From an uncultured Opitutia bacterium (GTDB lineage: Bacteria; Verrucomicrobiota; Verrucomicrobiia; Opitutales; UBA953), in assembly GCA_937874455.1 (NCBI GenBank), contig CALNBE010000236.1, positions 1-39,196 on the forward strand: 39,196 nt of DNA, read 5' to 3'. The position numbers and the translations under genes were made by a program. Positions 2,779-37,629 of the stretch are shown here, piece after piece. Each line of letters begins with the position of its first letter. Position 1 is the first letter of the stretch. Under the pieces are notes generated by a model, which was not told where the DNA came from, searched no databases, and saw nothing but the letters and a program-made list of their open reading frames with translations.

Positions 2779-3309
2779 TTACGGGTTGGCGGCTTTGAGC
2801 TCGGCGAGCTTGTTCCGCATTTTGGGCAGGCGGGTCTGGTGGGGTTCGTCCTTCATCGCGATCTCCCGCAGCGCGGCCCGCCATTCCGGATTCGTCTGCT
2901 CGTTGATCAGGGCCAGCATGCCCGGGGTGGCTCCGGGCGTGTCCTGTTCGGTGTGGTCCACCAGGCCGGCGGGGGCAGGCGGGGTGCCGGTGGCTCCGGC
3001 CGGCTGGGGCGATTGAGCGGTGTCTTCTGTCGCTTTTGCGGCGGCGGCAGCGGAGAAATCGGCAGCGGCGCCAATTGGCGCCGGAGGCAGCGGGTTGGCT
3101 GCGACGTTGACGATTTTGAGGTCGCGGCCGCTTGCTTCTTTGATTGCGGCCACGATCCGGGAGACGGCGTCGGCGAGCTCAGCCCTCACAATCTGCTGAA
3201 TGTCGGCGCGCTGCGCGGGGCTGAAGGCGGCGCCAGTCAGCGGGCGGCGGGGGCGGTCCTGGAAGGGCCGGGATCCCCCGGGGAGGTCGTTTGGTGTGTT
3301 GATTGCCAT
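2779..3309 (-). CDS. hypothetical virion-module protein (Ala/Pro-rich)
   Basis: 176-aa track ORF with ATG at 3309 and a terminator upstream. It contains palindrome copy 1 in frame (PAPIGAA). Confidence 0.5.
   Translation of the reverse strand: MAINTPNDLPGGSRPFQDRPRRPLTGAAFSPAQRADIQQIVRAELADAVSRIVAAIKEASGRDLKIVNVAANPLPPAPIGAAADFSAAAAAKATEDTAQSPQPAGATGTPPAPAGLVDHTEQDTPGATPGMLALINEQTNPEWRAALREIAMKDEPHQTRLPKMRNKLAELKAANP
3067..3082. repeat. 16-bp perfect palindrome GGCGCCAATTGGCGCC, copy 1 (inside CDS 2779..3309)
   Basis: Read directly from the sequence: gcGGCGCCAATTGGCGCCgg. Confidence 0.9.
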
Positions 3310-3345
3310 GGCGTGTCACTGGTGGACGGAATCGGCGGGGCTGGC

Positions 3346-3381
3346 AAAGGAAAAAGGGCGGGAAGGTTTCCCCTCCCGCCC
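3346..3381 (-). terminator. rho-independent terminator after 3402..4415
   Basis: Minus strand: GGGCGGGAGGG-GAAA-CCTTCCCGCCC followed by TTTTTCCTTT. Confidence 0.65.
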
Positions 3382-3401
3382 CGCCATGAGCAACCTGGCC
3401 C

Positions 3402-4415
3402 TTACCGGCCGGCGGTCACAATGATGAGGTCCCCGGCGGCCCAGTCCGAGGTTCCTGCGTTGTCCACACTCACCGTGTTTCCACTGATGGCGGGAACGCC
3501 GTCCCATGCCTTGTGCGCTCCGGTGCTGCTCTTAAGCACGACCGAGGCATAGGTGGGGTTGAAGTTGAACGGGAAGCGCATCACCCCCAGGGCGACCTCG
3601 GTCGCGAGAGCGGCGCGCTGGACGATCTTGGTGATCGGGAAGTCGTTGCCCTGGGCGGTGCCCCCGAAGGAGGCCGCGGCGGCGAAGACGTTGTTGCTCC
3701 CCGCCATGGTGGTGGTGGTCGCGAGGCTCTTCCCGTTGGCGTCGGTGCCTTGAAGGATGATCTCGTTGGTTCCTCCGGAAGTGGCTTTGAATCCGGCGGC
3801 GTTCGCATTGATCGCGAGGATGATGGCGGCCTTGGCTTCCGCTGCGGTGGGGTCCACTCCGTTGGCCAGGGTGGTGGCTGCGCCGGCCCAGCTGAACTGT
3901 GCGGCGCTCTCGGCCAGGGTGATGGCGTTCCCGTTGGTCCCCTTCGCCCGGGCCGTGATGACCACGGCGTTCGTGCTCGATGCGGCCGCGGTGACGTTCG
4001 GGTGGGCGACGCTGGCGGAGGTGTAGACGGTCCCGGCTCCGGCTCCGCCGTTGATGAGGGCGACGTAGTTATTCCGCGTCGCGGTCAGGTCGGCCCCGAG
4101 CAGGAACTCATTGGCGGCGCCAGTCAGGGTGGCCCGGCAGGTGGCGGCGACCCCGCCGACGGTGATGGTGTCCCCGTCGGTCAGGTTGGCGGCAAAGGTG
4201 CCGGTGATGTTGGCGGCGACTGCGGTCGGTGCGGCGCTCAGGTCGATGGGGATCCGGCCAGCCGTCACGGCCTTCCCGGTGTAGAACTCAAAGACCTTCG
4301 TCCCGAGGGTGATGGTCTCCGTGTCCTTCACCGCGCTGGCGATGCGGAGGATGTTCATGCTCGGAAGCGCGGCGGCGATCACGAGCCGGTCGAGTGCGGA
4401 AAGTTGGCGTTTCAT
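3402..4415 (-). CDS. repeat-containing virion protein, candidate capsid decoration protein
   Basis: 337-aa track ORF directly after the capsid gene, bracketed by two terminator hairpins. It carries three internal units of the type xTITLG/DGDTITVGG/GNAITLAE. It is Ala/Thr/Gly-rich and beta-strand-like. Confidence 0.5.
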   Translation of the reverse strand: MKRQLSALDRLVIAAALPSMNILRIASAVKDTETITLGTKVFEFYTGKAVTAGRIPIDLSAAPTAVAANITGTFAANLTDGDTITVGGVAATCRATLTGAANEFLLGADLTATRNNYVALINGGAGAGTVYTSASVAHPNVTAAASSTNAVVITARAKGTNGNAITLAESAAQFSWAGAATTLANGVDPTAAEAKAAIILAINANAAGFKATSGGTNEIILQGTDANGKSLATTTTMAGSNNVFAAAASFGGTAQGNDFPITKIVQRAALATEVALGVMRFPFNFNPTYASVVLKSSTGAHKAWDGVPAISGNTVSVDNAGTSDWAAGDLIIVTAGR

Positions 4416-4430
4416 GGTGGTGTCGGGTGG

Positions 4431-4465
4431 GAAGAAAGAAGGGGCAGGGCTCTGGTCCCTGCCCC
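4431..4465 (-). terminator. rho-independent terminator after the major capsid gene
   Basis: Minus strand: GGGGCAGGG-ACCAGAG-CCCTGCCCC followed by TTCTTTCTTC, 20 nt after the capsid stop. Confidence 0.65.
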
Positions 4466-4484
4466 TTCCAAATGGTGGAAACGC

Positions 4485-5489: not shown

Positions 5490-5598
5490 GGGTAGTGGTT
5501 TGGGAGTGTGGGTAAAGCTCCCGCCTGTTCGGGAGCGCGTTTTGGCTCAGGAACAGACCACCGGTCCGATGTGCCTTCCCGGACCCCGGGTTGGCTCA

Positions 5599-5614
5599 TG
5601 CTGCGAAAGTGCCA
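5599..5614 (-). promoter_or_regulatory. candidate promoter box TGGCACTTTCGCAGCA upstream of the capsid gene (-24/-12-like spacing)
   Basis: The coding strand reads GTGGCAC-N6-CAGCA, the same frame as GTGGCAT-N6-CAGCA in cassettes E1 and E3 (GG-N10-GC). It lies just downstream of a terminator and about 110 nt upstream of the capsid ATG. Confidence 0.35.
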
Positions 5615-5632: not shown

Positions 5633-5675
5633 AGGAAAAAATGAACCCCGCCAGGCTGGTAAGTTCCTGGCGGGG
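5633..5675 (-). terminator. rho-independent terminator between the scaffold and capsid genes
   Basis: Minus strand: CCCCGCCAGG-(10-nt loop)-CCTGGCGGGG followed by TTCATTTTTTCC. Confidence 0.65.
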
Positions 5676-5768
5676 TAGGGGTTGCTCTTGGCTGGCCCTT
5701 GGTGAGGCTGGTTCAAGTATGGACTTTTTTTATTTTAAATCCAGTCCTTTCCTGACTTATTTTCTGGC

Positions 5769-5784
5769 GGCGCCAATTGGCGCC
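5769..5784. repeat. palindrome copy 2 (scaffold-capsid intergenic region)
   Basis: Read directly from the sequence, 28 nt downstream of the scaffold stop. Confidence 0.9.
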
Positions 5785-5811
5785 GGATCTTTCCGTCGGG
5801 GAAAACCAGCC

Positions 5812-6797: not shown

Positions 6798-8372
6798 TCA
6801 TTGCCTTCGGGAACTCGATGCTTGGTCGGGCCAGGTGATCAGCCAGGCGATCTTGATCCGCCGGCCAAGCCAGCGCATGACGGCCACGGCCATTGAGTTC
6901 CCGAGCGCCCGGTAGCGGGGGCTGTCCGGGCAGGCGTCTGGTTCTGCGCCCCTCCACGCGATCCGGGTGTGGCCGTCAGGGAAGCCCTGGAGCCGCTCGC
7001 ATTCGGTCGGAGTCAGCCTGCGGACGGCGTAGTCCATGGCGACTGTGGTGCTGCTGTTGCTGATCTCGCCCGGGGGGCTGGTGGTCAGGGCGCAGGCCAC
7101 TTCCGCCGGGGTGGCCGTGGACTTGGTGCCGTCGGCGCCGTGCAGGGTGTAGGCCACGAGGGCGCCGCGGTCGGATCCGCTCTGCTTCCCGTGGCTGGCC
7201 GGGCTGGTCGGTCCTGCCATCACGGTCGGGCTCACGTCCTCGACGTAAGCCACTGCCGGCATGGTGGCGACGCAGTGCGTCTTCACGGTCTCGAGTGCGC
7301 CCGTGATGTCCCCGAAGACCTGCGGGGCCCGGTCGTAGCCGCGCCCGTCGTCTCCCCGGGCGCGGCCGCTGAATGCGATGGCGCTGGGGTTTTTGGCGCC
7401 GAGGCTGGGGAGGCCTTCTTCCGCGACGGCTTGGGTGCCGGAGAGGTTGGCGGGGAAGGGGATGATGGTGCAGGTCTCCCAATCGTTCCGCTGGCCTTCT
7501 CCTTTCGTGATGCAGCCCGCGACTTCGGGGATGAGACCTCCGCTTGTTGCGAAAGTGTTTGCCCCGCTACGTCCGGCTCTACAGTCGAGGGTTGGCGCCC
7601 TTTCGGGGAGGATGTTGGCGTCGGGGCCTCGGTCGGAGTAGGGCCGGCGGGTGATGGGCTCTGCGATGCCACGGCCTCCAGTGCCTTCCGGAGCGGCTCC
7701 GGCAGGGCTTTGCCCCGGTTCTCTGCCCGGCGCAGAATCCCGGCGCATGCCTTCCCACTCAAATAAAACCTTGGTGGGATCGGGCCCGTTTCGAGGACTC
7801 GCGAAAGCAAACACACGCTCGCGTCGTTGGGCCAGGCCGAAATATTGGGCATCGAGGACCCGCCACGCGATTGTCCTTTTGGGTCCAAACACAGCACCAC
7901 AGTCTGTCCATCCGTCCCCTGGCGGTTGCAGCGGAACGTCTGCTCCGGCCAGCCCTGCCAGAAAATGTCCGTAGGGGTTGTCGTTGTGGTTGAGGACTCC
8001 GGGGACGTTTTCCCAGAGGCAAAGAGCGGGAGGTCGTCCAAAAAGGCTTCGGGCATGATCGATTCGTTCTAGCAGGTGGATAAAAATGAGGGTGAGGTTC
8101 CCGCGCTCGTCTTCGAGTCCGCCCCGCAGGCCGGCCTGGCTGAATGACTGGCAGGGGGTTCCGCCGACGAGCAGGTCGACCTGGGCGAGCAGGTCCAGCG
8201 GCCAGTCCCGGTATTTGGTCAGGTCGCCCAGGTTGGGAACGCGGGGGTGGTGGTGCCGGAGGACCTCAATGGGGAACTTCTCAATCTCGGCGAAGGCGAC
8301 CGGGGTCATGCCCAGGTCCCGCCATGCTGTGGACGCGGCCTCGATGCCCGAGCAGACACTAAGGAACTTCAT
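6798..8372 (-). CDS. DNA (cytosine-5) methyltransferase with very long variable region
   Basis: 524 aa. Motifs present: I (FLSVCSGIEA), IV (GGTPCQSFSQAG), VI (ENVPGVL), VIII (QRRERVF), IX (RRLTPTECERLQGFP), X (ALGNSMAV). About 255 aa separate motifs VIII and IX. Confidence 0.9.
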   Translation of the reverse strand: MKFLSVCSGIEAASTAWRDLGMTPVAFAEIEKFPIEVLRHHHPRVPNLGDLTKYRDWPLDLLAQVDLLVGGTPCQSFSQAGLRGGLEDERGNLTLIFIHLLERIDHARSLFGRPPALCLWENVPGVLNHNDNPYGHFLAGLAGADVPLQPPGDGWTDCGAVFGPKRTIAWRVLDAQYFGLAQRRERVFAFASPRNGPDPTKVLFEWEGMRRDSAPGREPGQSPAGAAPEGTGGRGIAEPITRRPYSDRGPDANILPERAPTLDCRAGRSGANTFATSGGLIPEVAGCITKGEGQRNDWETCTIIPFPANLSGTQAVAEEGLPSLGAKNPSAIAFSGRARGDDGRGYDRAPQVFGDITGALETVKTHCVATMPAVAYVEDVSPTVMAGPTSPASHGKQSGSDRGALVAYTLHGADGTKSTATPAEVACALTTSPPGEISNSSTTVAMDYAVRRLTPTECERLQGFPDGHTRIAWRGAEPDACPDSPRYRALGNSMAVAVMRWLGRRIKIAWLITWPDQASSSRRQ

Positions 8373-8422: not shown

Positions 8423-8647
8423 TTAGGCTACGTGGAATCCGGCCAGGGCAAAGGCGGTTGCCAGGTTCATGGTGGTGTGGTGCTCAGGCCGGCCAAAGAT
8501 CCGGCGGGCCTCAGGGGCTTGGATCGTGCCTTCGTCGTCGGCGGCGTCCCAGATCTTCCGGGCCTTGGCTATCTGCTTACGGCCCGTGGCTTTGACTGTG
8601 CATTCCTGGCCGGCGCTATCGCCGAATTCAAAAGTTTGGGAGCTCAT
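8423..8647 (-). CDS. hypothetical small protein (cargo of repeat cassette E1)
   Basis: 74-aa track ORF with ATG at 8647, preceded by the conserved cassette and the GAACCC leader. Confidence 0.5.
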   Translation of the reverse strand: MSSQTFEFGDSAGQECTVKATGRKQIAKARKIWDAADDEGTIQAPEARRIFGRPEHHTTMNLATAFALAGFHVA

Positions 8648-8727
8648 GGTGGTGTCGGGTTCGGGTTCGTGCTGACACTATGCCACACTCAGTCAGGATA
8701 GCTAGTAGTTTTTTTAAATCTATGCAC
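8648..8727 (-). promoter_or_regulatory. conserved intergenic cassette E1 (A-tract box, TGGCATAGTGTCAGCA box, GAACCC leader)
   Basis: Coding strand reads TAAGTGCATAGATTTAAAAAAA-N24-TGGCATAGTGTCAGCACGAACCCGAACCCGACACCACC-ATG. It fills the whole gap between two genes. Confidence 0.6.
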
Positions 8728-9069
8728 TTATTTCATGGCGGCCAGGATAGCCGTGGTCACGGCGGCGGTGGCTTCATCCTCGGTCATGGCCGGGGTGATC
8801 CCGAACCGGGTCGCTGCCGCGGGGCTGGCCGTGCAGGCGTATTGGACGCACATGGCGATTGCCTGGACGTTCTCGCTCTCCAGCAGCTTGGTCCGCAGGC
8901 CGCGCAGGGCCTCGACCAGCCGGAGGGCCTCGGCCATGGCCGCGATCTCCTCTTCCTTCTGGACCTCGTTCATCCGGCAGGCTGGCTTCTTGTAGAAGCT
9001 TTTGCGCATGTTGAGTTCCCGGGCGAGGCAGCCCACGACCTTCGCAAGTTGGGGGCGTTCCTCAGGCAT
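8728..9069 (-). CDS. hypothetical protein
   Basis: 113-aa track ORF. Its start overlaps the upstream stop by 8 nt. Confidence 0.5.
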   Translation of the reverse strand: MPEERPQLAKVVGCLARELNMRKSFYKKPACRMNEVQKEEEIAAMAEALRLVEALRGLRTKLLESENVQAIAMCVQYACTASPAAATRFGITPAMTEDEATAAVTTAILAAMK

Positions 9070-11077: not shown

Positions 11078-11178
11078 CAGAGCGGGCTCAGGTAGTAGGC
11101 CTTCAGGACCTGGTTCAAGCTCAGGATGGCGGCGGCGGTCAGGGCCAGGTAAAGCAGGCTGGTCAGGGCGCGTTTCAT
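11077..11178 (-). CDS. 33-aa hydrophobic peptide (possible membrane protein)
   Basis: My own translation gives MKRALTSLLYLALTAAAILSLNQVLKAYYLSPL. It has a GAACCC-type leader upstream and its stop overlaps the next ATG. It is too short for the ORF track. Confidence 0.35.
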   Translation of the reverse strand: MKRALTSLLYLALTAAAILSLNQVLKAYYLSPL

Positions 11179-11206
11179 GGTGGTATTGGGTTCGGATTCG
11201 TGGGGC

Positions 11207-11407
11207 TTAGGCTTGGGTGGCCAAGTTGGCGTCGGCGAGTTTTTCGAATTTGTCTATCAGCTGGCGGCGGCGGCGGGTCAGGCCGGAGTTCCGTGTGTTG
11301 CCCCGGGCTTCCCGGGCGTCGATCACGTTTCCAAGGCTGGTGATGTGCCGGGCCAGTTCGACCATGTCAGGGGTCATTTCCGGGGCTGTGTTGTTGGCGG
11401 TGCTCAT
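11207..11407 (-). CDS. hypothetical small protein (cargo of repeat cassette E2)
   Basis: 66-aa track ORF preceded by the conserved cassette and leader. Confidence 0.5.
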   Translation of the reverse strand: MSTANNTAPEMTPDMVELARHITSLGNVIDAREARGNTRNSGLTRRRRQLIDKFEKLADANLATQA

Positions 11408-11489
11408 GTTCGGTGTCGGGTTCGGGTTCGTGTCAGGAGTATGCCATGGGCCGTGGTGTTATCCACTCCTTTTTTTAAATCCATGCACT
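11408..11489 (-). promoter_or_regulatory. conserved intergenic cassette E2
   Basis: TAAAGTGCATGGATTTAAAAAAAGGAGTGGATAAC...TGGCATACTCCTGACACGAACCCGAACCCGACACCGAAC-ATG, in the same register as E1 and E3. Confidence 0.6.
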
Positions 11490-12719
11490 TTATTTTCGCT
11501 GCCTCGGCGGGGCCGGCACGAACTGCCCATCGTTGTCCAGATCGGCGATTGTCAGTCCCTTGGTCTCTGGTGGCGGCTCCCCGCGGCTGACCTTTGCGTC
11601 CAGCTGCTTCAGGGTCAGTGGCCGGTTGTTCTGGTCGGTCAGGTCGGACAGGCTGAGCTCTCCCTTGCCCCGGTTCCACCGTGCTGCCCGGCCCGGGCCC
11701 AGCGTCTTGTCGATGAACGTGTCGTCTTTCTTCGCGAGCCACTCGTCCATGGTCAGGTCCTTGTTGACCTGCCCGTCCATGCTGGCGCGGCTGTTGATGG
11801 TCACGGCCTCGATCTGCTCCTTGCTCATGCCCTGGGCGGCCAGCTTCTTTTTCACGGTGTCCTCCAGCTTCTTGTTGTCGAGGCTCGGCAGCTTCCTGCC
11901 CATGAGCTCTTCCCAGGACTTCAGGACCGGCACGCGGGTGGACCTGCAGTTCCAGTGGGCCGTGGTGCCGGGGTATGCCTTGTTGTGGCCGACCGGCTTG
12001 TAGTCGGGGATCGTCCAGATCTTTCCGGACAGCCCTTGGCAAATCAGGGTGGTCCGGCCGTCCAGGGTGCTGACCCACTGGATGGCGTCGACCACGTCGT
12101 CGAGGTCCTCAATGGTCTTTTCCCGGGCGGCGTTGGCGGTGCTGAGCGCGCTGGTCCGGACAAGGCTGGTGGCCTCCCTCCGGCTCACTGCCATCACGCC
12201 GTCGGTGTATCCGGCCTGTGCTGTGCCGCGGACCCGGCGGACCAGCTGCTCGTTGGTTTCGCCCAGAAGCTGGCCTCGGGTCATTTCCCCGCGGAACCGC
12301 TGCTGAAGGGATTCGTCCTGGCCCTGCCACCATGTCCTGGCCGAGTGGCCCATGATGTTGGGGCCGGTGCTGATTGCGGTCAGCTGGTTGAGGCTCAGGC
12401 TGACTCCGAGCACGTCGGCCCCGATCACTTCGTTGATGAATCCGACGGTGGCCTTGGCTTCCACGGTGGCCAGGCCGGCCAGCTGCTTCCGGTGCTTTTT
12501 CTCGATCCCCTCGTAAGCCAGCCGGATGCTGGCGGTGCATTCCTCCAGCATCCGGAGGAACCGGGTCCGGGCGTTGAGGCTCCGGGCGTTGGCCACTTTC
12601 CCGACGAGGTCGGTTTCGAGGTCCAGCAGCGCCTGCAGGGCGATCTGCTGGTGGCCGGCTGCCACGCGCAGGATGTCGATGGTGTGGCCGGTGAAGGCGT
12701 CGGGTAGGCGGTCGTCCAT
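11490..12719 (-). CDS. head morphogenesis protein (SPP1 gp7 / Mu F-like minor capsid protein)
   Basis: 409 aa. WVSTLDGRTTLICQGLSGKIW...HWNCRSTRVP is the hallmark of the Phage_Mu_F family. Confidence 0.8.
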   Translation of the reverse strand: MDDRLPDAFTGHTIDILRVAAGHQQIALQALLDLETDLVGKVANARSLNARTRFLRMLEECTASIRLAYEGIEKKHRKQLAGLATVEAKATVGFINEVIGADVLGVSLSLNQLTAISTGPNIMGHSARTWWQGQDESLQQRFRGEMTRGQLLGETNEQLVRRVRGTAQAGYTDGVMAVSRREATSLVRTSALSTANAAREKTIEDLDDVVDAIQWVSTLDGRTTLICQGLSGKIWTIPDYKPVGHNKAYPGTTAHWNCRSTRVPVLKSWEELMGRKLPSLDNKKLEDTVKKKLAAQGMSKEQIEAVTINSRASMDGQVNKDLTMDEWLAKKDDTFIDKTLGPGRAARWNRGKGELSLSDLTDQNNRPLTLKQLDAKVSRGEPPPETKGLTIADLDNDGQFVPAPPRQRK

Positions 12720-13176: not shown

Positions 13177-13434
13177 TTATGCGGCGGCGATGGTGGCTTC
13201 GATCACCGCGGTGGGGGTCTCGCTGGTGAAGGTCGCGCTCCAGATCAGGATCCCGTTTTTGGTGAAAGCCCGGATGGCCCAGGAGGGTTTGTCGGCTCCT
13301 TCAAATTCGGCGGTTACGCTGATCACCGTGCCGTCGGTTTTGGTCCATTCGATCTGCCGGCTTTCGGCGTTGTCGTATCGGCCAGTCTTGAATCCGTTGG
13401 CGAGGAGGCGGTCGAGGAAGGCTGTGGTTTTCAT
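13177..13434 (-). CDS. hypothetical small protein (cargo of repeat cassette E3)
   Basis: 85-aa track ORF preceded by the conserved cassette and leader. Confidence 0.5.
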   Translation of the reverse strand: MKTTAFLDRLLANGFKTGRYDNAESRQIEWTKTDGTVISVTAEFEGADKPSWAIRAFTKNGILIWSATFTSETPTAVIEATIAAA

Positions 13435-13516
13435 GGTCGGGTCGGGTTCGGGTTCGTGCTGACACTATGCCACGTCCTTCCTTGTTATCCACTCCTTTTT
13501 TTAAATCTATGCACTT
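13435..13516 (-). promoter_or_regulatory. conserved intergenic cassette E3
   Basis: TAAAAGTGCATAGATTTAAAAAAAGGAGTGGATAAC...TGGCATAGTGTCAGCACGAACCCGAACCCGACCCGACC-ATG. Confidence 0.6.
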
Positions 13517-14505: not shown

Positions 14506-14537
14506 TTTCGGGTGGGTTTATCGGGGAAATGGGGTCC

Positions 14538-14553
14538 GGCGCCAATTGGCGCC
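14538..14553. repeat. palindrome copy 3 (immediately after the portal stop)
   Basis: Read directly from the sequence. It carries the extended form TCCGGCGCCAATTGGCGCCGAGG. Confidence 0.9.
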
Positions 14554-16525: not shown

Positions 16526-17538
16526 GCCTGGAGGCTGTTGTGATAGTTTTGCAGGATGGATTCAAGCAGGGCGCGCTGACCAGATGTTTGCACTGATGGC
16601 CCGGTTCCAAATGCTGAAATACGAGCATCTGATATACCGACTGCGGCTCTTGAAAAGAAAGTCAATGCATTTGCGCTGTTTCCGTCTGTAGCTATAGAAA
16701 ATACTTGCTCTGTATTCTGATTCCGGAAAACAAACTGTCCGGAGTTCATTCGATCCATCAGAAATAGACCAGTCAAACTGCTGGTGTTACCCGATGGAGT
16801 CTGGATGGTGGTATTTTTTGCCCTGGCTGCAAGCTCGTCTCCGGCAGAAGCCTTCAATAGTTGAATGGTTCCGGTGCCGCCTCCGGTCGAATTTCCAAAA
16901 TAGGCCTTGACAGTCAATGCTGATGTTGGCGCCGAGGTAACCCAACACCATGCAGAAAAATCATTTTGGCCATTCGCGTTGCCCGCCCAGTCTGTTCCAA
17001 GGTATTTGGTTGTTCCGTCGCTCATCCACCCCGTCAGCAAATCAATATCCCCGCTGACAAAGTTGTTGTTTGTGATTGCCCCGCCCTTCCCGGCCACCAG
17101 CCCGCCCGCGATGGTGTTCGTCCCGGCCAGCACGCGGTATTTGAAGCCGGTGAAAAGTCCGGCGGCCTTCAGAGCAATCACCATGTCATCACGGAGCCAT
17201 TTGTTGTTGGCGCGATTTCCTGGGGAGCTGCCCCATTCGCCTGATCCGCCTGCCGAAATCACTGCGGTAATTTCTGCGGCGGCGTCAGTGTCATACGCCG
17301 CAACGGTCCTTGTGTTGCTGGCCGGGGCCTGGGTGATCAGGTCGCCAGGGCTGGTGGTGTAGGGCACGGCAAAGGTATTGCCGGTTTGGCCGATCACGTC
17401 CACGCCGTTGATTCGCCATTGGCCGGCCCGGGTGCTGGTGAGGGTGTTCCCCGGGCGGGCGGTGCCAGTAATCACCCCCGGGGTGGGCTTCCCGGGACGG
17501 CTCAGGCCAAATCCTACGCCAAATCCAAAGCCGGGCAT
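16522..17538 (-). CDS. fiber/receptor-binding-like protein with LamG/concanavalin-like C-terminal half
   Basis: 338 aa. The N-terminus is Gly-rich and the C-terminal half is rich in beta-strand Asn/Gly/Thr. The 3' half of the gene is visibly AT-richer than its surroundings. Confidence 0.45.
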   Translation of the reverse strand: MPGFGFGVGFGLSRPGKPTPGVITGTARPGNTLTSTRAGQWRINGVDVIGQTGNTFAVPYTTSPGDLITQAPASNTRTVAAYDTDAAAEITAVISAGGSGEWGSSPGNRANNKWLRDDMVIALKAAGLFTGFKYRVLAGTNTIAGGLVAGKGGAITNNNFVSGDIDLLTGWMSDGTTKYLGTDWAGNANGQNDFSAWCWVTSAPTSALTVKAYFGNSTGGGTGTIQLLKASAGDELAARAKNTTIQTPSGNTSSLTGLFLMDRMNSGQFVFRNQNTEQVFSIATDGNSANALTFFSRAAVGISDARISAFGTGPSVQTSGQRALLESILQNYHNSLQA

Positions 17539-17541
17539 AAT

Positions 17542-17808
17542 TCAGGAGGCGAGGATTGCGCAGACGGATCCGCTGGTCAGCTGGAAGGCCTTCAGCCTGA
17601 AGGGCAGCTGCATCCCTGCCGGGAATGTCACACCGGTCAGGCCTGTGGCTTTATAGTTCCCGTCTGCGGTCACGGACGCAAAGATGGTGTCGGTCAGGAC
17701 AAGGAACCCGATGACCCTCATGGTTTTGGCGGTCGTGTTGCTCACGACTTCGGCCCCGCCTCCGCCGCTGAGGGTGCTTGCGATTTTTCCTCCAGTGAGT
17801 GCGCTCAT
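17542..17808 (-). CDS. hypothetical protein
   Basis: Internal ATG (MSALTGGKIAST...) of track ORF 17542..18210. The long N-terminal extension overlaps other genes. Confidence 0.4.
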   Translation of the reverse strand: MSALTGGKIASTLSGGGGAEVVSNTTAKTMRVIGFLVLTDTIFASVTADGNYKATGLTGVTFPAGMQLPFRLKAFQLTSGSVCAILAS

Positions 17809-17852: not shown

Positions 17853-18119
17853 TCAGACCTGCGGCGGGCTCGGGGGCCGGTGGTTGGTCAGGTCCTTGGC
17901 TGCCATCCACCAAGCCTTTCCGGACATGGCCCGGCCTTTGACTTTGACGTATCGGCGGCATTGGCTCACTGCCTCGATCTGGACGCGCCAATTGTTCCCC
18001 TTTCCGTTCTTGGGTGGGGCGACGGCGTGCCAGCCTCTGCCCAGGCCGGCTTCCAGCTGGGCATAAAAATCGGCGGATCGCTTCTCCGCGAGGGTCATGC
18101 GTGGGATGGTCTTTTTCAT
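17853..18119 (-). CDS. hypothetical basic protein
   Basis: Internal ATG (MKKTIPRMTLAEK...) with an ATGA overlap to the upstream stop. Confidence 0.4.
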   Translation of the reverse strand: MKKTIPRMTLAEKRSADFYAQLEAGLGRGWHAVAPPKNGKGNNWRVQIEAVSQCRRYVKVKGRAMSGKAWWMAAKDLTNHRPPSPPQV

Positions 18120-23218: not shown

Positions 23219-23352
23219 GTCGGGATCGGGTTCGGATGGGCCCTCCCCGCCGGCTGCCTGGTCCTCTGCCAGCGCCGTCGGGAAGGGTTGGTTACCGGGG
23301 CTTGCGGTCCGGTTGCTGCCACCATGGGGCCGGTTCCGTGGCTGGCAACTAC

Positions 23353-23364
23353 TTTTTTTAAATC
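23353..23364 (-). repeat. fourth copy of the GATTTAAAAAAA box (partial cassette upstream of 22913..23218)
   Basis: The plus strand reads tttttttaaatc, identical to the 12-mer at about 8709, 11470 and 13496. A degenerate variant lies at about 5722-5745. Confidence 0.55.
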
Positions 23365-23423
23365 CGTTCCGTTTGGGTGGTAACGAAGCGTTTTTCGTGA
23401 CCTCCATCGGGGGAATTGGGTCC

Positions 23424-23439
23424 GGCGCCAATTGGCGCC
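23424..23439. repeat. palindrome copy 4 (immediately after the terL stop)
   Basis: Read directly from the sequence. Its extended 23-bp form is identical to that of copy 3. Confidence 0.9.
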
Positions 23440-25656: not shown

Positions 25657-26133
25657 TCATTCTGACTTCTTCGGGGCGGTGTATGGGTCGTCCTCGACCG
25701 GTGTCTCGACCACGATGGTCACGCCGATGTTTCCGCCTGTGGCCGGTGCTGGCAGCGGGGCGCCGTTGGCTCCGGTGTGCTCGTGGCGGTGGCGGAGGTT
25801 GAAGCTGGAGTCCATGCGTTCGAGGAGCCAGGCCTTGGCACGCCAGTCCGGGTCGTTTCCGATCCCGGAAATCATCTGGGTGATCTTGAGGGATTTGACT
25901 TCCTCGATGCGGCGGAAGAGTTCGGTGTATGGAGCCCGGCCTTCCGAGGCTTTGTGCTTCCAGTCGATCCATGTCTGGTGGGCGATGCCGATGGCTCCGC
26001 AGATGGCTTTGTCCGTGGTCAGGCCGCTGGCCAGGGTGACGGCGGTGTCCATGAGTTCCCTCGTGCATTTCCCGGCCTTGGAGGGTGGGGAAATCCTCCG
26101 GGGCTTTTTGCGTGGTGTCTTCTTGGCGGCCAT
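25657..26133 (-). CDS. terS: terminase small subunit
   Basis: Internal ATG (MAAKKTPRKKPRR...), an HTH-like segment, and DPDWRAKAWLLERM, which is typical of small terminases. Position is upstream of terL. Confidence 0.6.
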   Translation of the reverse strand: MAAKKTPRKKPRRISPPSKAGKCTRELMDTAVTLASGLTTDKAICGAIGIAHQTWIDWKHKASEGRAPYTELFRRIEEVKSLKITQMISGIGNDPDWRAKAWLLERMDSSFNLRHRHEHTGANGAPLPAPATGGNIGVTIVVETPVEDDPYTAPKKSE

Positions 26134-26137: not shown

Positions 26138-27469
26138 TCAGAGGAGTTTTGCGGGCGGGACGGTCTTTCCGTTCTGGGTGATGGTGGCTCCGTCGTAAAG
26201 CCTGTGGAACCGGCCAAGGATGGCCTGGGCGAAGGCCGGGTCTTTCTCCATGGTGAAGGAGGGTCGCTCGGCTTCGCTGGCCGCGATCATGGTGGATCCG
26301 GATCCTCCGCAAAAGTCGAGGACGGCTTCCTTGAGGGTCAGGTGGTTTTTGATGGCCCGGGCGGCCAGGGCGGTGGGTTTCTGCGTGGGGTGGATGTAGC
26401 TGGCGGCGGAGTCGCGTTTCACTTCCCATGCGGTGGCGTTGTGGAAGGCCTGCTCGATCCAGACGAGCAGGTCGGTCTTGCTCATCTGGGCGAGGTTGGG
26501 CTGGGCTTCTTTCCAGACCGTGGTTTCGATGCGGTCTCCTCGCCATGTGCCGCGGCCGGCGGATTGGCTGGCGTAGAGGCAGGGCTCGTGTGCCCAGTGG
26601 TAATCGGACCGGCCAAGGGCCATTTGCTTGGTCCAGATGATTTGCTGGCGGACGGTCCAGCCGGCCATGTTCAGGGCGTCTTCAAACTCGCGGTGCGTCC
26701 TCGATGCGTAGAAGCAGTAGAGCGGGGCGGTGGGGGCGGCGACGTCCATGGCGGCGCTGAACATGGCGGCCAGCATTTTCCGCAGTGGGGCTCCGGCTTC
26801 AAGGTCTCCCTGCAGGTCCTTCCGGGCAAGGTTCTTTCCGGTGCCCTGGTATGCCACGCCGTAGGGCGGGTCGGTGAAGATCAGGTGGGGGGCGGTGCCG
26901 TCGGTCAGCTTCCGCATATCGGCCTTCTCGGTGCTGTCCCCGCACATCAGGCGGTGCAGTGGTGCTGAACCTCCAATGTGCAGGGTGAAGATGTCGCCGG
27001 GCTTGACCCATGGTTTGATGGGTGGTGGTGGGGCTGGATCGTCGGGCCGGCCCTTCAGCGCTGCGCGTCCCTGTTTGAGGATCTCGACGAGGCTGGGGGC
27101 GTCGAAGCCGAGTATCTCCAGGTCGGACGTGTCCTTCAGCTGGGAGAGCAGGGCGGCCAGCTTGCCCTGGTGCCAGTTGTCCTCGCCGATCTTGTTCAGG
27201 GCGAGGTTGAGCTCGCGTTCGGCGTTGTCGTCCAAGGTGACGAAGGTCACGTCGACTTCCCTGATGCCGAGGGCCTTCATCACGGTGATGCGCTGGTTCC
27301 CGCCGACGATGTGGTTGTTCCTCCGGTTGATCACCGGGGGCTGGACGGCTCCGAACTTTTCGATGGAGTTCCGGATCTGCTCGAAGAGCGGCGAGCCGCG
27401 CTTGACTGCCTTCCGCGGGTTGTAGGGCGGATGGATCAGGGTGGCGATTTTGACGGTGTCAGTCTTCAT
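26138..27469 (-). CDS. ParB-like nuclease domain fused to N6-adenine/N4-cytosine DNA methyltransferase
   Basis: 443 aa. The N-terminus has a ParB N-terminal pattern (IVGGNQRITVMKALG). The methyltransferase part has IFTDPPYG and LDFCGGSGSTMIAA (SAM binding). Confidence 0.9.
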   Translation of the reverse strand: MKTDTVKIATLIHPPYNPRKAVKRGSPLFEQIRNSIEKFGAVQPPVINRRNNHIVGGNQRITVMKALGIREVDVTFVTLDDNAERELNLALNKIGEDNWHQGKLAALLSQLKDTSDLEILGFDAPSLVEILKQGRAALKGRPDDPAPPPPIKPWVKPGDIFTLHIGGSAPLHRLMCGDSTEKADMRKLTDGTAPHLIFTDPPYGVAYQGTGKNLARKDLQGDLEAGAPLRKMLAAMFSAAMDVAAPTAPLYCFYASRTHREFEDALNMAGWTVRQQIIWTKQMALGRSDYHWAHEPCLYASQSAGRGTWRGDRIETTVWKEAQPNLAQMSKTDLLVWIEQAFHNATAWEVKRDSAASYIHPTQKPTALAARAIKNHLTLKEAVLDFCGGSGSTMIAASEAERPSFTMEKDPAFAQAILGRFHRLYDGATITQNGKTVPPAKLL

Positions 27470-27642
27470 GGGTTGGCGGGTTCGGGTTCGGTGGTGGGTG
27501 CTTTGCTCCAGCCTCCGGCGCAGTTGGGCCTGCCTCTTCCGTCCCCGTGCAGGGCAAAGTATCCGTTCTTTTTGACTTTCCGCCGGTTCTTGCAGAACGG
27601 GCAGATGGCGGAGGGGAAGTGGCGGGGTTTTTCAGTCTTCAT
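27466..27642 (-). CDS. 58-aa zinc-ribbon-like peptide
   Basis: My own translation gives MKTEKPRHFPSAICPFCKNRRKVKKNGYFALHGDGRGRPNCAGGWSKAPTTEPEPANP. Its stop overlaps the methyltransferase ATG. It is below the ORF-track length cut-off. Confidence 0.4.
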   Translation of the reverse strand: MKTEKPRHFPSAICPFCKNRRKVKKNGYFALHGDGRGRPNCAGGWSKAPTTEPEPANP

Positions 27643-32683: not shown

Positions 32684-32729
32684 GGCACTTTTCCCCAATT
32701 TTTTGGGGTGTCCATCGGGGAAAAGTGCC
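32684..32729 (-). promoter_or_regulatory. nested inverted repeat in the leader of the SF2 helicase gene
   Basis: GGCACTTTTCCCC (32684-32696) pairs with GGGGAAAAGTGCC (32717-32729). The inner repeat CCCCAATTTTTTGGGG lies at 32693-32708. Confidence 0.55.
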
Positions 32730-32731: not shown

Positions 32732-32747
32732 GGCGCCAATTGGCGCC
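32732..32747. repeat. palindrome copy 5 (upstream of the SF2 helicase gene)
   Basis: Read directly from the sequence. It has the same 23-bp extended form in inverted orientation. Confidence 0.9.
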
Positions 32748-32755: not shown

Positions 32756-33028
32756 TCAGGCTCCGCCTTGGGCGGTCAGCGTGCCTGGCGCGGCGCCGGT
32801 TCCGGCAGCGACCGGGGCGCCGGGGTCACCCTCGCGGGGAGGCCAGTTCCAGCAGCCCGGATCCGGGCTCGGGCCCCGGACGCAAACCGCGTTAAAGGGC
32901 GCTCCGCCCTCGTTGAAGGCGGCCAGGTTGACGGTCTCATCCGGATTGATTCCGGCGATGATGGCGGCGCTCGGCTTGAAGTTGGCGCCGCGGTTGAGGT
33001 GGACGATCCGTCCAATGGTTGGTTTCAT
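32756..33028 (-). CDS. hypothetical small protein
   Basis: 90-aa track ORF with a GAACCC-type leader. Confidence 0.5.
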   Translation of the reverse strand: MKPTIGRIVHLNRGANFKPSAAIIAGINPDETVNLAAFNEGGAPFNAVCVRGPSPDPGCWNWPPREGDPGAPVAAGTGAAPGTLTAQGGA

Positions 33029-33059
33029 GGTGGGTTGGGTTTGGGTTCGGTTCTGTCGA

Positions 33060-33989
33060 TCAGTCTGCCCCTTCGACCACCCGGCGGGCGGTGATGGCCC
33101 AGCCGTTGATCACGGTTTTGAAGGCCTTGTTGGTCTTCTTGCCTTTGTCCAGGGCAGCAGCCAGCAGGATCAGATTCCCGATACTGTCCCGGGAGTCTAG
33201 CGTTTTCTGGATGAACTTGAGCGCCGCGTCGACGGTCCATTTTAGGATGATCAGTTCTGCGATGGCGACTTGGTCGTCCGCCGGCAAGGCAAGGAACTTG
33301 TCATGCTCGGACCTCGTTTTGAGGATCACCCCGTTTTCGTAGGCGGTGCCGAAAGCCTCGCCCAGGAGGGTGTTCAGCTTCTTGGTGTTTTTTTTCCGCT
33401 CGGCCTTCATGGCGGCCAGTTCGTTGGCCTCTGTGGCGGCCTGCGTCGCGGCGGCAGCCTGCTGTTTGTCGTCCTTGATCTCCTTCTCCGCGGCGGCCAG
33501 CGTCTTGGTGCCGGCCTTCACGTCGGCGAAGGCTTTCGGGTCGGCTTTCTTCACAGCCCGGGCACGCTCGACGCTGCGGGGGCTGGTGCCGAACTGGGCG
33601 GCTACCACCTTGGTGGATTCCTTGGTCGTGGTGCCGGCAGCGGCGGCGGCCTCGGCTTCAAAGGCAGCAAAGAACTCCTCGGCCGCGCTCGCCTTCTGGC
33701 CGATGGTCAGGTGGCGGCGGTGCCAGTTCTTGTCCTTCACGAAGTGGGCGGGGGAATCCCCGTCCGTGGGCAGGCTTCCGAACTCGCGATAGATCGGTGT
33801 GACCTTGGCAATCTCGCAGGCTCGTTGACGGTTGTTTCCGTCGAGGACCTGGCCGTCCAGCAGGACGATGGCTTCGCGCTGGCCGTTGACCTTGATGCTC
33901 TCGCCCAGGGTGGTCAGGTTGAGGACGTCCTCCATGGGGAGGATCTGGCTCAGGGGGTGGGGTGGGTATGCTCGGTGTGTCGTGCTCAT
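33060..33989 (-). CDS. ParB-family N-terminal domain protein with HTH
   Basis: Internal ATG (MSTTHRAYPP...) with an ATGA overlap. IVLLDGQVLDGNNRQRACEIA is a ParB box. VAAQFGTSPRSVERARAV is an HTH. The C-terminal part is coiled-coil-like. Confidence 0.7.
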   Translation of the reverse strand: MSTTHRAYPPHPLSQILPMEDVLNLTTLGESIKVNGQREAIVLLDGQVLDGNNRQRACEIAKVTPIYREFGSLPTDGDSPAHFVKDKNWHRRHLTIGQKASAAEEFFAAFEAEAAAAAGTTTKESTKVVAAQFGTSPRSVERARAVKKADPKAFADVKAGTKTLAAAEKEIKDDKQQAAAATQAATEANELAAMKAERKKNTKKLNTLLGEAFGTAYENGVILKTRSEHDKFLALPADDQVAIAELIILKWTVDAALKFIQKTLDSRDSIGNLILLAAALDKGKKTNKAFKTVINGWAITARRVVEGAD

Positions 33990-35378: not shown

Positions 35379-36283
35379 GTGAATTTGATGGGGGTGCCTG
35401 TCAGGATCTGGAGCCTCCGGATGATGGCGTCGGCGAGGCTGCTGGTTCCGCCGTCCGGAGCGGGCAGGAAGCGCTTGGCTAGCTCGGCGCCGGTGTATTG
35501 CGTGGTGACCAGCATGGGCCGGCTCTGCTGCATGCGGCGCTCGGTCAGCTGGAAAAGCGCGTCCTCTCCGGCGGGCGTGCCAGCCATGTTTCCCACGTCG
35601 TCGAGAAAGAGGTAATCGCAGGCGATGAACGGTTTCAGGAACTGCAGGGTGTTGGTCTCCTTGGCTGCCCTGCTGCAGGCTGCGCGCCACTCGGAAGCGA
35701 TGATGTAGCGGAGGCTCTTCTGCTTCCAGACCAGCGGAAGGATGGCTCCGTGGAACATGGCGGTCGTCTTGAACTTGCCGCTTTTGCCATGGATCAGCAC
35801 GCCGGGGCCGGATTTGAAGGCGTCCTTGACCTTCTGGAGTTTCTCCGCCGGCAGTGCTGCGATGATCTCCTTGGTCCGGTAGAACTCCGGGCAGATGGCT
35901 TCCCACTCCGCATTCCGGGCTGCTTCAAAGGCCTGCTGTTTTTTGGACTTCTCCTTCTCGTTCTGGGCGGCGGAGCAGGCTTCGCAGAACCGCACGGTGT
36001 CGATGGTGCGGCCAAAGAGGAAGGCGGTCACGGCCTGAAACTCTTTGCTGCAGGTCTCGCAGATTTTGGTCTTGGTGGTGACCTCGGTCTGGTGGCTGAG
36101 GTCGAGGTCGGCGAACATCGCGCTCTGGCAGGGTGGGCAGGTGTTGGGCACCAGGGTGGTTCCGCCGTCGGAGCGCGGGAGCTTCACCGCGGGGGTCGGT
36201 GTGCCGCACTGCTTGCAGGGCAGGTCTTCGCTACCAGAGCCAGGGTCGGTCGGGGTCAGCAGGTGGGGTGGTGGATTGATCAT
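35375..36283 (-). CDS. DnaC/IstB-like AAA+ helicase loader with N-terminal Cys clusters
   Basis: Internal ATG (MINPPPHLL...) behind the GAACCC leader. The Walker A-like motif HGKSGKFKTT is atypical, with F at the second-Gly position. Walker B is YLFLDDVG. The N-terminus has three CxxC-type pairs. Confidence 0.6.
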   Translation of the reverse strand: MINPPPHLLTPTDPGSGSEDLPCKQCGTPTPAVKLPRSDGGTTLVPNTCPPCQSAMFADLDLSHQTEVTTKTKICETCSKEFQAVTAFLFGRTIDTVRFCEACSAAQNEKEKSKKQQAFEAARNAEWEAICPEFYRTKEIIAALPAEKLQKVKDAFKSGPGVLIHGKSGKFKTTAMFHGAILPLVWKQKSLRYIIASEWRAACSRAAKETNTLQFLKPFIACDYLFLDDVGNMAGTPAGEDALFQLTERRMQQSRPMLVTTQYTGAELAKRFLPAPDGGTSSLADAIIRRLQILTGTPIKFT

Positions 36284-36983
36284 GTGAGGTCGGGTTCGGG
36301 TTCGGTGAAATGTCCTGCCAGCGCTCCTCGTGGAACCACGTGGATCCGTGCGGCGTGAATGGCAGGCATTTGCCATCACTTCCGGCTCTGGACAAGGCAT
36401 AAGTCTTGGTCCGGGCCAAAAGTTCAGGTGCGGTTATTTTTTTCTTCCGGAGGGCTTGGCGGATGTAGTCGAGGGCCTTCTTTTTGCCCTCCTTGTTGGG
36501 GTAGGCTTTCCAGATCTCCTCGATGATTTCGGATCCGGCTTTGATCTCCTTGCTGGCATCCCCCTCCAACGCAAACGCCCCCCCTGGGGGGCATAAGTCT
36601 TTATTCTCATTCTTTTCTTTCTCTATATATGGCGTTTCCCCATTTGGGGAAAAGGCGTTCCCCATTTGGGGAAAGTCGTTTCCCCATTTGGGGAAATCCG
36701 GCTCAGGATGAACCGCCATGAGCATGCGCTGGTCTCCGTCTTTCCATCTTCGGAGCCAGCCTTTTTCGATCAGATTCGTGATGGCATTGGCCACGCTTTT
36801 TTCCGCAATATCGAAGGTCCGGGCGAGGTGTTCGTTGGTCGCAAAGCACCCTCCCCGGGTGTGGCTGAAAAGGGCGTGGATCTGGGCCCAGAGCAGGCGC
36901 TCAATCCAGCGCAGTCCCTGCGCGTCGATGATGTCGACGGGCAGGAACAGGCCGGTGAATCGGCGGTGAGGTCCGTCGCTCAT
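36231..36983 (-). CDS. replisome organizer / replication initiator (wHTH N-terminus, DnaD-like C-terminus)
   Basis: ATG at 36983 (MSDGPHRRFTG...) with an ATGA overlap. FATNEHLARTFDIAEKSVANAITNLIEKGWL is an HTH. The C-terminus IWKAYPNKEGKKKALDYI...STWFHEERWQD is typical of phage replication proteins. The iterons lie in the linker-coding part. Confidence 0.6.
   Translation of the reverse strand: MSDGPHRRFTGLFLPVDIIDAQGLRWIERLLWAQIHALFSHTRGGCFATNEHLARTFDIAEKSVANAITNLIEKGWLRRWKDGDQRMLMAVHPEPDFPKWGNDFPQMGNAFSPNGETPYIEKEKNENKDLCPPGGAFALEGDASKEIKAGSEIIEEIWKAYPNKEGKKKALDYIRQALRKKKITAPELLARTKTYALSRAGSDGKCLPFTPHGSTWFHEERWQDISPNPNPTSHDQSTTPPADPDRPWLW
36595..36630. other. AT-rich tract adjacent to the iterons (candidate DNA unwinding element)
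   Basis: taagtctttattctcattcttttctttctctatatat, in an otherwise ~63% GC context. Confidence 0.5.
36631..36697. repeat. three tandem 22-bp iterons (core TTCCCCATTTGGGGAA): candidate origin of replication
   Basis: Cores lie at about 36636-36651, 36658-36673 and 36680-36695. Each is an inverted repeat TTCCCCA/TGGGGAA. They sit inside the initiator gene. Confidence 0.65.
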
Positions 36984-37321
36984 GCGGTGAATTGCACGGG
37001 GGGTTGTTTCCGGCACCACTTCTGCCAGCTATCGGTGATGAAGCGCTCGGGGCTGCTCGGCTGGGGATTGGCCAGCCGGTAGGTGGCCATCTGGAACCAG
37101 CCGCTCTTGCTGGCCGGCCGGCGGGTGAGGTGCACGGCGGTCGGTTCCTTTTCCTGCCGGACGTAAACGAAGACTTTTTCGTTGGCCCGGTCGGGTTCGT
37201 CCTCCGGTTGGTCCAGCGCGTCCCAGGATCCGTCCCGGGCCTGCACAGCGCGCAGGAAGATCGGGGCGCGCTGGCAGGCCAGTTTCTGCCCCTCGGCGGG
37301 GCCGTCGAGGAAGCTGATCAT
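36980..37321 (-). CDS. hypothetical protein
   Basis: 113-aa track ORF with ATGA overlaps. Confidence 0.5.
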   Translation of the reverse strand: MISFLDGPAEGQKLACQRAPIFLRAVQARDGSWDALDQPEDEPDRANEKVFVYVRQEKEPTAVHLTRRPASKSGWFQMATYRLANPQPSSPERFITDSWQKWCRKQPPVQFTA

Positions 37322-37629
37322 GACTTAGGGACGCAGATGAAGAGCTCTTTACCGGTGCCGTGGATGTGGACCGATCCCTTCGGGTAGGCCTTCGCAATCG
37401 CGGCCATGAGCTTGGTGTTCAGGTCCATGTTGATCGGGGGGTGGATGGTCAGCAGGACGCGCTTCCCTGGCGGCATCCAGCCGGGCCGGGGGATGGCGCC
37501 AATTGGCGCCGCATCAAATGGCGGGGCGGTCCGGCTGGGCGCGCAGGGCCCCTCGTGGCCGTCGTTCCGGATGCATCTCCAGCCGTCCGGCTGGGGGATG
37601 GCGCATTCGTTATCGGTTTCGTTGCTCAT
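37318..37629 (-). CDS. hypothetical protein
   Basis: 103-aa track ORF. It contains palindrome copy 6 in frame (AAPIGAI). Confidence 0.5.
   Translation of the reverse strand: MSNETDNECAIPQPDGWRCIRNDGHEGPCAPSRTAPPFDAAPIGAIPRPGWMPPGKRVLLTIHPPINMDLNTKLMAAIAKAYPKGSVHIHGTGKELFICVPKS
37495..37510. repeat. palindrome copy 6 (inside CDS 37318..37629)
   Basis: Read directly from the sequence. Confidence 0.9.

Follow-up and report, generated by a model that had tools for sequence, protein, structure and literature searches.

Why does a phage genome carry one and the same 16-bp palindrome six times, and which protein, if any, reads it? The question is raised by a contig of 39,196 bp from an uncultured Opitutia bacterium (assembly GCA_937874455.1, contig CALNBE010000236.1), which we analysed over its entire length and call the window. 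Its palindrome, GGCGCCAATTGGCGCC, occurs in exactly six perfect copies. The answer that we consider likely, reached by comparing sequences, is that these copies are parS- or OB-like sites for a dimer of an orphan ParB-like protein that the phage itself encodes. The coordinates of the copies and of related features are collected in Table 1.

Six copies are far above what chance would give, as the initial annotation had stated. That number was reached in none of 100 dinucleotide-preserving shuffles, and between 1e-5 and 1e-4 copies (about 5e-5) are expected under Markov models of order 0-4 computed on masked sites. A scan of the window that allowed up to 3 mismatches gave no further matches. The half-sites that had been reported near 17985 and 37825 are real too: GCGCCAATTG and GGCGCCAATTG both exceed chance, with about 0.03 expected per strand.

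All genes of the window lie on the minus strand. Four of the six copies are intergenic (P <= 0.011, with the non-coding fraction set generously at 18%). They lie at operon junctions, 4-27 nt past stop codons, and the module boundaries to which they had been assigned hold up, with the individual gaps given in Table 1. The other two are found in variable, low-complexity protein linkers. Both are read A-P-I-G-A with rare codons, CCA making up 17.5% of the Pro codons and ATT 11.7% of the Ile codons.

The proposed binder has no match in Pfam, in NCBIfam or in a single-sequence search of the PDB, and it is about 17% identical to solved structures. A profile built from 28 sequences matches Spo0J (1vz0) with E = 1e-7 over both the N-domain and the helix-turn-helix (HTH), followed by Noc and ParB. 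The AlphaFold (AF2) model has a predicted local distance difference test score (pLDDT) of 91, and the top 28 Foldseek matches are all ParB, Spo0J, KorB, Noc or pNOB8-ParB. The protein consists of an N-terminal ParB/Srx NTPase-type fold, the HTH (model helices 126-159) and, at the C-terminus, a helical/beta domain, and its recognition helix, SPRSVERARAV, has Arg at position 7. The phosphate-binding motifs of the ParB NTPase fold are present as DGNNR (GxxR, Box II) and KNWHRRHL (ENxxR-like, Box III; N..RRHL), with D50, G51, R54, N88 and R91 invariant in 28 homologues.

Judged by profile and predicted structure, this is a true ParB/Spo0J/KorB-fold protein. As the NTPase motifs are conserved, a nucleotide-gated clamp is plausible. 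The homologues are labelled COG1475 (ParB-like), and the family comprises 14,792 clusters at 50% identity (E <= 1e-30). Further, the N-terminal part of the protein recurs as the N-terminus of many phage methyltransferases.

The relatives of the phage (L-numbered loci) are metagenomic and were recovered by protein searches. Among cultured phages, a megablast of 25 kb returned methyltransferase fragments only, a tblastn with the ParB-like protein returned no match, and the nearest portal, that of Xp15, is 32% identical. A portal-based search of IMG/VR gave no close relatives.

In L262, where the ParB-like protein is 55% and terL 73% identical to those of the window, there are three copies of TCCGCCAATTGGCGGA, i.e. 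(T/G)CCGCCAATTGGCGGA. One of them (10959) is 8 nt past the stop of the ParB-like gene and ahead of the SF2 helicase gene, homologous to the window copy at 32732. Another (6440) is found at homologous codons in the homologue of gene 37318-37629, where it is read PPIGG, and matches the window copy at 37495. The scaffold-capsid junction, which holds the window copy at 5769, has TCCGCAAATTTGCGGA in L137. L504 carries GTCCGCCAATTGGCGGAC twice, once after the scaffold gene at this same junction and once just past a TATAAT hexamer, with the portal start 16 nt further on. In L613/L615, TGCGAAAATTTTCGCA occurs six times within 20 kb, mostly 0-8 nt past stop codons; next comes either an A-rich stretch with a TTGACN-17-promoter or a separate terminator. 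In L264, CGCATGA-WAAW-TCATGCG occurs four times, always in or beside good sigma-70-type promoters (e.g. TTGCNC-18-TAGATT), and L300 has two copies of AATCGGCGAATTCGCCGATT.

The comparison with related phages that the initial annotation had proposed thus finds sites at homologous positions, in genome-specific variants. The positions are conserved between phages at 38-57% protein identity, and the sequence of the sites shifts in concert. Conserved positions with one variant per genome are the signature of a trans-acting specificity factor, whereas a hairpin needs complementarity alone. The regular spacing of about 8.8-9.3 kb that had been noted for the intergenic copies is there in the window (8769, 8886 and 9308 bp) but not in the relatives, where the intervals are 4519 and 9869 bp (L262) or 1.3-4.7 kb (L615), and it is probably incidental.

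The first sign of palindromes inside the ParB-like genes came from a scan for TCCGCCAATTGGCGGA, in which several were located just upstream of the HTH-coding DNA. To avoid ascertainment bias, we collected 80 viral loci of IMG/VR by protein homology alone, and derived the expected numbers from how dense palindromes are in each locus itself. Of the 80 loci, 31 (3.2 expected) contain a perfect palindrome of 12 bp or more whose centre falls +290 to +400 nt into the gene. For palindromes of at least 14 bp the number is 27 (1.2 expected), for at least 16 bp it is 11 (0.45 expected), and in some loci they reach 26-48 bp. Their place is fixed, 38-60 nt before the DNA of the recognition helix, in about 40% of the homologues (L610-L689, L303-L553).

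The cores of these embedded palindromes belong to the family of the window's element, with G+C arms and an AATT or AAATTT centre (e.g. CCGCCAATTGGCGG and GCGCCAGCTGGCGC). One 14-mer, CCGCAAATTTGCGG, is identical in homologues yet translated PQICG or xANLR, in different frames, which indicates that the DNA and not the peptide is conserved, as had been suggested for the coding copies of the window. In a ParABS partition system one would look for a 16-bp palindromic parS beside or inside parB. In the window, a single small gene separates the ParB-like gene from the palindrome downstream; in L262 a palindrome stands directly past the ParB-like stop, and in the 31 loci it is within the gene.

Site and recognition helix also vary together. 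We aligned the helix (S-x-R-S-V-x-X7-A) to the half-site in 45 distinct protein/site pairs. X7 is Arg in 12 of the 12 pairs with G at base +3 from the dyad centre and a residue other than Arg in 33 of the 33 pairs with T or C (Fisher p = 3.5e-11); C is paired with Asp, Lys and Gln, and T with Ala, Ser, Thr, His and others. Among 88 residue-base pairs X7/+3 has the highest mutual information (1.25 bits, z = 11), followed by helix Arg3 with GC at +4/+5. A crude tree of the N-terminal domain only has the Arg/G state in five or more separate lineages, with other states interspersed among them. Phages whose sites are dispersed fit the rule: the window and L262 (Arg; TTGGCG), L613/L615/L612 (His; TTTTCG or TTTGCG), L264 (Ala; AWTCAT; T at +3) and L300 (Asp; TTCGCC; C at +3).

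We propose that each recognition helix of a dimer would read one half-site (TTGGCGCC), with the Arg at helix position 7 contacting the G at +3. The sites are placed directly after stop codons at operon or module junctions, upstream of or overlapping promoter-like elements, and a few of them in permissive linkers. By analogy with KorB of RK2 and BisD of ICEclc, binding may be followed by NTP-dependent clamp closure and by sliding, and most likely the protein would repress adjacent operons, insulate them against read-through or time them. Physical binding, NTP dependence and the transcriptional outcome are predictions.

The initial annotation had offered an operator and a centromere-like site as one hypothesis. 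A ParB-like site is favoured by the fold, the embedded palindromes and the covariation, while the centromere part finds no partner. Neither a ParA-type Walker A motif (KGGxGK[ST]) nor a ParA-binding motif (LG(R/K)GL) is present on the coding strand of the window, no ParA family match is found among its scanned open reading frames, and no ParA is found in the loci of the relatives. The positions at junctions and promoters, the L264 sites inside core promoters and the lack of ParA together point to transcription, in the manner of KorB or BisD, as the probable field of action; a role in DNA partition has less in its favour, as no ParA is found.

A wider scheme, which we regard as possible rather than probable, is that each member of the orphan family may carry or control a parS-like palindrome. 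One lineage would embed the site, and the lineage of the window would have moved it out and multiplied it. The NTP-gated clamp would then insulate or time operons, or recruit the ParB_N-methyltransferase fusion, with Arg7/G+3 and Arg3/GC+4/+5 as the code. This fusion is a possible partner of the ParB-like protein. Phage ParB-fold proteins can serve as cofactors of DNA-modifying enzymes (preprint, bioRxiv 10.1101/2025.08.14.668559), and a link between the two proteins is conceivable.

In the window, L262 and L137 the palindrome is accompanied by a second motif, CCCCGAT(R)(R)A, which occurs only three times on the sense strand of the window, each time 12-18 nt past a palindrome. At the scaffold junction the flank motif is upstream of the palindrome, in both the window and L137. 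TTGGCG-N17-GATAAA/GATGGA resembles a weak sigma-70 promoter, with its putative -35 hexamer within the palindrome; alternatively the flank could be the site of a partner protein. The sigma-70 scan did not flag the palindrome sites of the window, and the promoters there are consensus predictions. At this consensus level, palindromes are near promoter-like elements or operon junctions in the window, L264, L504 and L615. In the window, 23424 and 5769 are upstream of A-tract/-35/-10 elements, and 14538 and 32732 directly before short CA-rich leaders. The second inverted repeat that follows the fifth copy (Table 1) is retained in L262 with compensatory changes (GCGCC...GGCGC).

A composite pattern of palindrome, N8 and TTYCCCCGA has zero matches in the JGI metagenomes, and a looser one gave chance matches only in IMG/VR. 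Three further readings were tried and rejected: a tie of the flank to replication iterons (the iterons of L262 differ, while the flank is conserved), an N4-type hairpin promoter or a promoter for a phage RNA polymerase (the window encodes none of this kind) and a promoter for an extracytoplasmic function (ECF) sigma factor (there is no AAC-type -35).

In database scans, exact GGCGCCAATTGGCGCC is found in 14 contigs of IMG/VR, in single copies only. It is also single-copy among the matches listed (at least 120 each) in GTDB species-representative genomes and in JGI metagenomes; a generic repeat spread over host genomes is not seen among these. TCCGCCAATTGGCGGA is present in 93 viral stretches of the IMG/VR scan (L431-L596, e.g. 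L550, L556, L566). Some phages with 42-48% G+C have 2-3 coding copies of TCCGCCAATTGGCGGA per genome, always read PPIGG, and one such copy is followed by GCGCCAATTGGCGC, read APIGA.

Several points weigh against a ParB-like site. Binding is deduced from covariation, and the covariation statistics carry no formal phylogenetic correction. There is no embedded palindrome within the window's own ParB-like gene, and the four sites of L264 are all away from its ParB-like gene. The ParB-like protein of L265 has Arg at position 7, yet in 13.7 kb there are no dispersed palindrome copies; one GC-only palindrome, GCGCCGGCCGGCGC, is located 66 nt before the gene (Arg; G at +3). ParB binding does not account for the conserved CCCCGATRRA flank, which could reflect a promoter or a second factor. 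As the window is probably an incomplete genome, ParA or some further regulator may be encoded beyond it. Finally, about 30 P2-like contigs (63-66% G+C) contain TCCGCCAATTGGCGGA between TTTAT and TTTTTTG, immediately upstream of the tail-sheath gene (MADHFLHG...), and no ParB-like gene in the fetched flanks. There it looks like a classical bidirectional terminator, so the palindrome sequence alone is not diagnostic.

The sites could instead be operators for some other dimeric regulator, the HTH_23 protein (20111-20443), the HTH_36/DnaD-like protein (36231-37019) or a small unannotated protein, with a coincidental link to the ParB-like one. The window does encode these further HTH proteins, the sites are at or beside promoter-like elements, and L265 has the ParB-like gene without dispersed sites. 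Still, we find this unlikely, given that the embedded palindromes and the Arg/G covariation tie the palindromes to the ParB-like family and that the HTH_36 protein has distinct iterons of its own within its gene. RNA hairpins in polycistronic transcripts, acting as U-tract-less terminators, 3'-end stabilisers or processing sites, would agree with the strong stem (-11.7 to -14.1 kcal/mol for the 16/18-mer), with the four copies shortly past stop codons and with the terminator-like TCCGCCAATTGGCGGA of the P2-like contigs. This idea, put forward earlier as a mark of mRNA 3' ends, is disfavoured, and we take it to be quite improbable. None of the six copies is followed by a U-run or called by the terminator scan, and the terminators that the phage and its relatives do have are of canonical form (e.g. 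3382-3355 in the window), while in L504 and L615 a separate canonical hairpin-plus-T-run stands directly after the palindrome. Further, the copies of any one genome do not differ even in their loops, copies lie within coding regions and promoter spacers, and covariation with a protein helix is not expected of an RNA element.

More doubtful still is a small palindromic element that is mobile or promotes recombination (MITE-, REP- or PATE-like), or else a sequence of module boundaries; it would spread inside phage genomes and from one to another, and mark points of mosaic exchange. Copies do have 15-20 nt of extra flank in common, giving a composite unit of about 37 bp, the sites are at module boundaries, and the in-frame copies in variable linkers are like Rickettsia palindromic elements; the embedded palindromes, too, are at the boundary of a domain promiscuously fused to others. 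Mobility, however, leaves the residue-base covariation unexplained, positions are kept while the sequence changes in concert, the protein scans of the window found no transposase or RAYT, and no target-site duplications were seen. A target of phage methyltransferases or host restriction, by way of the two GGCGCC and the one CAATTG within the element, was the remaining suggestion of the initial annotation, and we reject it as having hardly any chance of being right. The phage has two methyltransferases, a C5 enzyme (6798-8372) and the ParB_N-N6/N4 fusion (26138-27469), and the cofactor role of phage ParB-fold proteins cited above would suit such a target. But GGCGCC is missing in the variants of L262, L137 and L504, and CAATTG in those of L137, L300 and L615. 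Outside the palindromes there are 32 GGCGCC (36 expected) and 3 CAATTG (3.5 expected), neither enriched nor avoided, and a specificity of 16 bp far exceeds type II recognition sites.

Table 1. Palindrome copies, half-sites, flanking elements and ParB-fold proteins of the window.
Feature	Position	Strand	Setting or description
Palindrome copy 1	3067..3082		within gene 2779-3309 (-); GGCGCCAATTGGCGCC read APIGA, in a variable Pro/Ala-rich linker
Palindrome copy 2	5769..5784		27 nt past the scaffold stop; major capsid ATG 279 nt further on
Palindrome copy 3	14538..14553		6 nt past the portal stop; next ATG 32 nt further on
Palindrome copy 4	23424..23439		4 nt past the terL stop; about 75 nt upstream of an A-tract/TTGCCA promoter-like element
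Palindrome copy 5	32732..32747		8 nt past the stop of a 90-aa gene that follows the ParB-like gene; SF2 helicase start 72 nt on
Palindrome copy 6	37495..37510		within gene 37318-37629 (-); read APIGA
Half-site GCGCCAATTG	17985..17994		intragenic
Half-site GGCGCCAATTG	37825..37835		intragenic
Flank motif TTTCCCCGATAAA	14517..14529	-	CCCCGAT at nt 12-18 past the palindrome, sense strand
Flank motif TTCCCCCGATGGA	23403..23415	-	same register as at 14517..14529
Flank motif TTTCCCCGATGGA	32711..32723	-	same register as at 14517..14529; also 5' arm of the second hairpin
Flank motif TTTCCCCGACGGA	5792..5804	-	here upstream of the palindrome
Second inverted repeat GGCACTTTTCCCC...GGGGAAAAGTGCC	32684..32729	-	between palindrome copy 5 and the helicase gene
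Orphan ParB-like protein	33060..33989	-	proposed binder; from profile and structure searches
ParB_N-N6/N4 DNA methyltransferase fusion	26138..27469	-	second ParB-fold protein of the phage

The window has 64% G+C and is probably an incomplete genome, since the gene of a UvrD-type helicase runs off its end, tail genes are missing and the contigs of relatives measure 53-61 kb. According to PHROG and Pfam its replication module consists of a UvrD-like helicase, a DnaD-like HTH_36 protein, a DnaC-like loader, a KH protein, a SWIM protein, a nuclease, gene 33060-33989, an SF2 helicase, an SNF2 helicase and the ParB_N-N6 methyltransferase. It is followed by terL, portal, a MuF-like protein, HNH, the C5 methyltransferase, scaffold and major capsid. 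The earlier assignments of terL, portal, scaffold, SF2 helicase and the two methyltransferases agree with this. An Rfam scan at the gathering threshold and a tRNA scan gave no matches.

Other repeats are present in these genomes. Within the HTH_36/DnaD-like gene there are three tandem copies of TTCCCCATTTGGGGAA (36636-36695, 22-bp spacing), which look like origin iterons embedded in an initiator gene, as in lambda O; the homologue in L262 has four 24-nt repeats. In L262, the closest relative, a 45-nt repeat (AACAAATCAATAGTGCTTAGA.ATCAGGCTCACCCC...) stands three times in tandem between genes ahead of the terminase region (17481-17651), with no counterpart seen in the window. An intergenic family of 86 nt is found at 8644-8729, 11405-11490 and 13431-13516, and also at 23348-23374 and 5723-5741. 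On the sense strand it has an A-tract, GATTTAAAAAAAG, a TGGATA-16-CATAGT-like promoter and then a CA-rich leader. Separate from the palindrome sites, this family probably represents a class of strong promoters that have an UP element; a sigma-54 reading of it is inconsistent.

C/A-rich leaders (ACCCGAACCCGA...) precede many start codons (e.g. 4407-4434, 8639-8666, 11170-11197, 27466-27493, 33020-33047). They have no Shine-Dalgarno sequence, in the window as in all relatives, which suggests a host with initiation independent of it. Upstream of the major capsid gene, about 80 nt of leader are conserved (window 5500-5600, minus strand; L135 9940-10040; L137 18790-18880) among phages at 58-65% capsid identity. 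This leader contains nested inverted repeats (CTGTTC...GAACAG and CTCCCG...CGGGAG), has no Rfam match and may be a structured 5' untranslated region.

On the minus strand, a canonical hairpin-plus-T-run terminator follows gene 3402-4415 (3355-3382), and a second terminator-like hairpin with a T-run is found in the scaffold-capsid spacer (5634-5675), downstream of the palindrome at 5769. A strong hairpin followed by a T-run is also present on the plus, non-coding strand at 26074-26105, between the methyltransferase gene and the next one, facing against the direction of all genes.

Orphan ParB-fold proteins are plentiful on phages and mobile elements, and their DNA targets and roles are almost entirely unknown. 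A 2025 survey of the ParB-CTPase fold described many orphan phage homologues and reported no binding sites (PMC12704722). The window and its relatives offer a concrete protein-site pair, a family-wide architecture, with sites either inside the gene or spread over operon junctions, and a residue-to-base rule. The newest parts are the family-wide embedded site and this rule. The residue-base code, if true, would let binding sites be predicted from sequence alone, and would make specificity predictable and engineerable. The phage is a candidate second case, after KorB/RK2, of genome-wide control by a ParB-type clamp, in an uncultured lineage without ParA. Confirmation would open tens of thousands of unannotated proteins to direct tests of function and would supply orthogonal ParB/parS pairs for DNA labelling or synthetic regulation.

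How does this compare with known systems? In chromosomal ParB/Spo0J-parS and in Noc with its binding sites (NBS), a dimer with the ParB fold uses its HTH to recognise a palindrome of 14-16 bp, as we predict here. In the ParB/Noc pair, specificity shifts via few helix residues. Chromosomal parS within or beside parB parallels the palindromes embedded in the ParB-like genes; unlike in chromosomal ParB, these are fixed in place, in the linker immediately before the HTH-coding DNA. In contrast to both ParB and Noc, the window protein is a highly divergent orphan, and no ParA, SMC or membrane role is implied for it.

The linear plasmid-prophage N15 has SopB and four dispersed inverted repeats, IR1-IR4 (PMC7205306). 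Here, too, a few near-identical palindromes of about 16-18 bp are scattered among phage genes, with a phage-encoded ParB-family binder, putative in the case of the window. However, N15 has SopA (ParA), and its sites are centromeres for partition of the plasmid-prophage, while no ParA, ParA-binding motif or sign of a plasmid lifestyle is found in the window. BisD of ICEclc and VirB of Shigella are ParB-like, cytidine triphosphate (CTP)-dependent regulators of transcription (PMC12409273, PMC12704722). They resemble the window protein as orphan ParB-like proteins of mobile elements, load at specific sites and regulate promoters remotely. They differ in being activators or anti-silencers, with one or few loading sites against six or more identical ones.

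KorB of the IncP plasmid RK2 is a CTP-dependent sliding clamp of the ParB family and a global repressor (PMC11790492). KorB with OB is like the window in combining a ParB fold and an HTH with a short palindrome that recurs many times across a mobile genome; its copies may overlap a promoter, stand tens of bp away from one or be remote. Its role is regulatory and not purely segregational, which would hold for the window protein too, and KorB is among the Foldseek matches. The differences are that of a plasmid and a phage, that of a 13-bp OB, TTTAGCSGCTAAA, and a 16-bp AATT-centred site, and that the sites of the window hug upstream stop codons. No IncC/ParA has been identified in the window, nor a KorA-like partner, at which no search was aimed, and sliding with CTP is for the window protein a prediction.

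Cluster A mycobacteriophages also have a short site that recurs many times in the narrow gaps between phage genes: their stoperators are bound by the L5 gp71 repressor and are thought to block transcription between genes. Unlike the palindromes, stoperators are asymmetric, orientation-dependent 13-mers, and the immunity repressor that binds them is not of the ParB fold. What may set the window apart from all these systems is the combination of an orphan without ParA or KorA, an uncultured phage lineage that may be lytic, sites that hug stop codons, and a divergent family in which other members embed such sites in their own genes.

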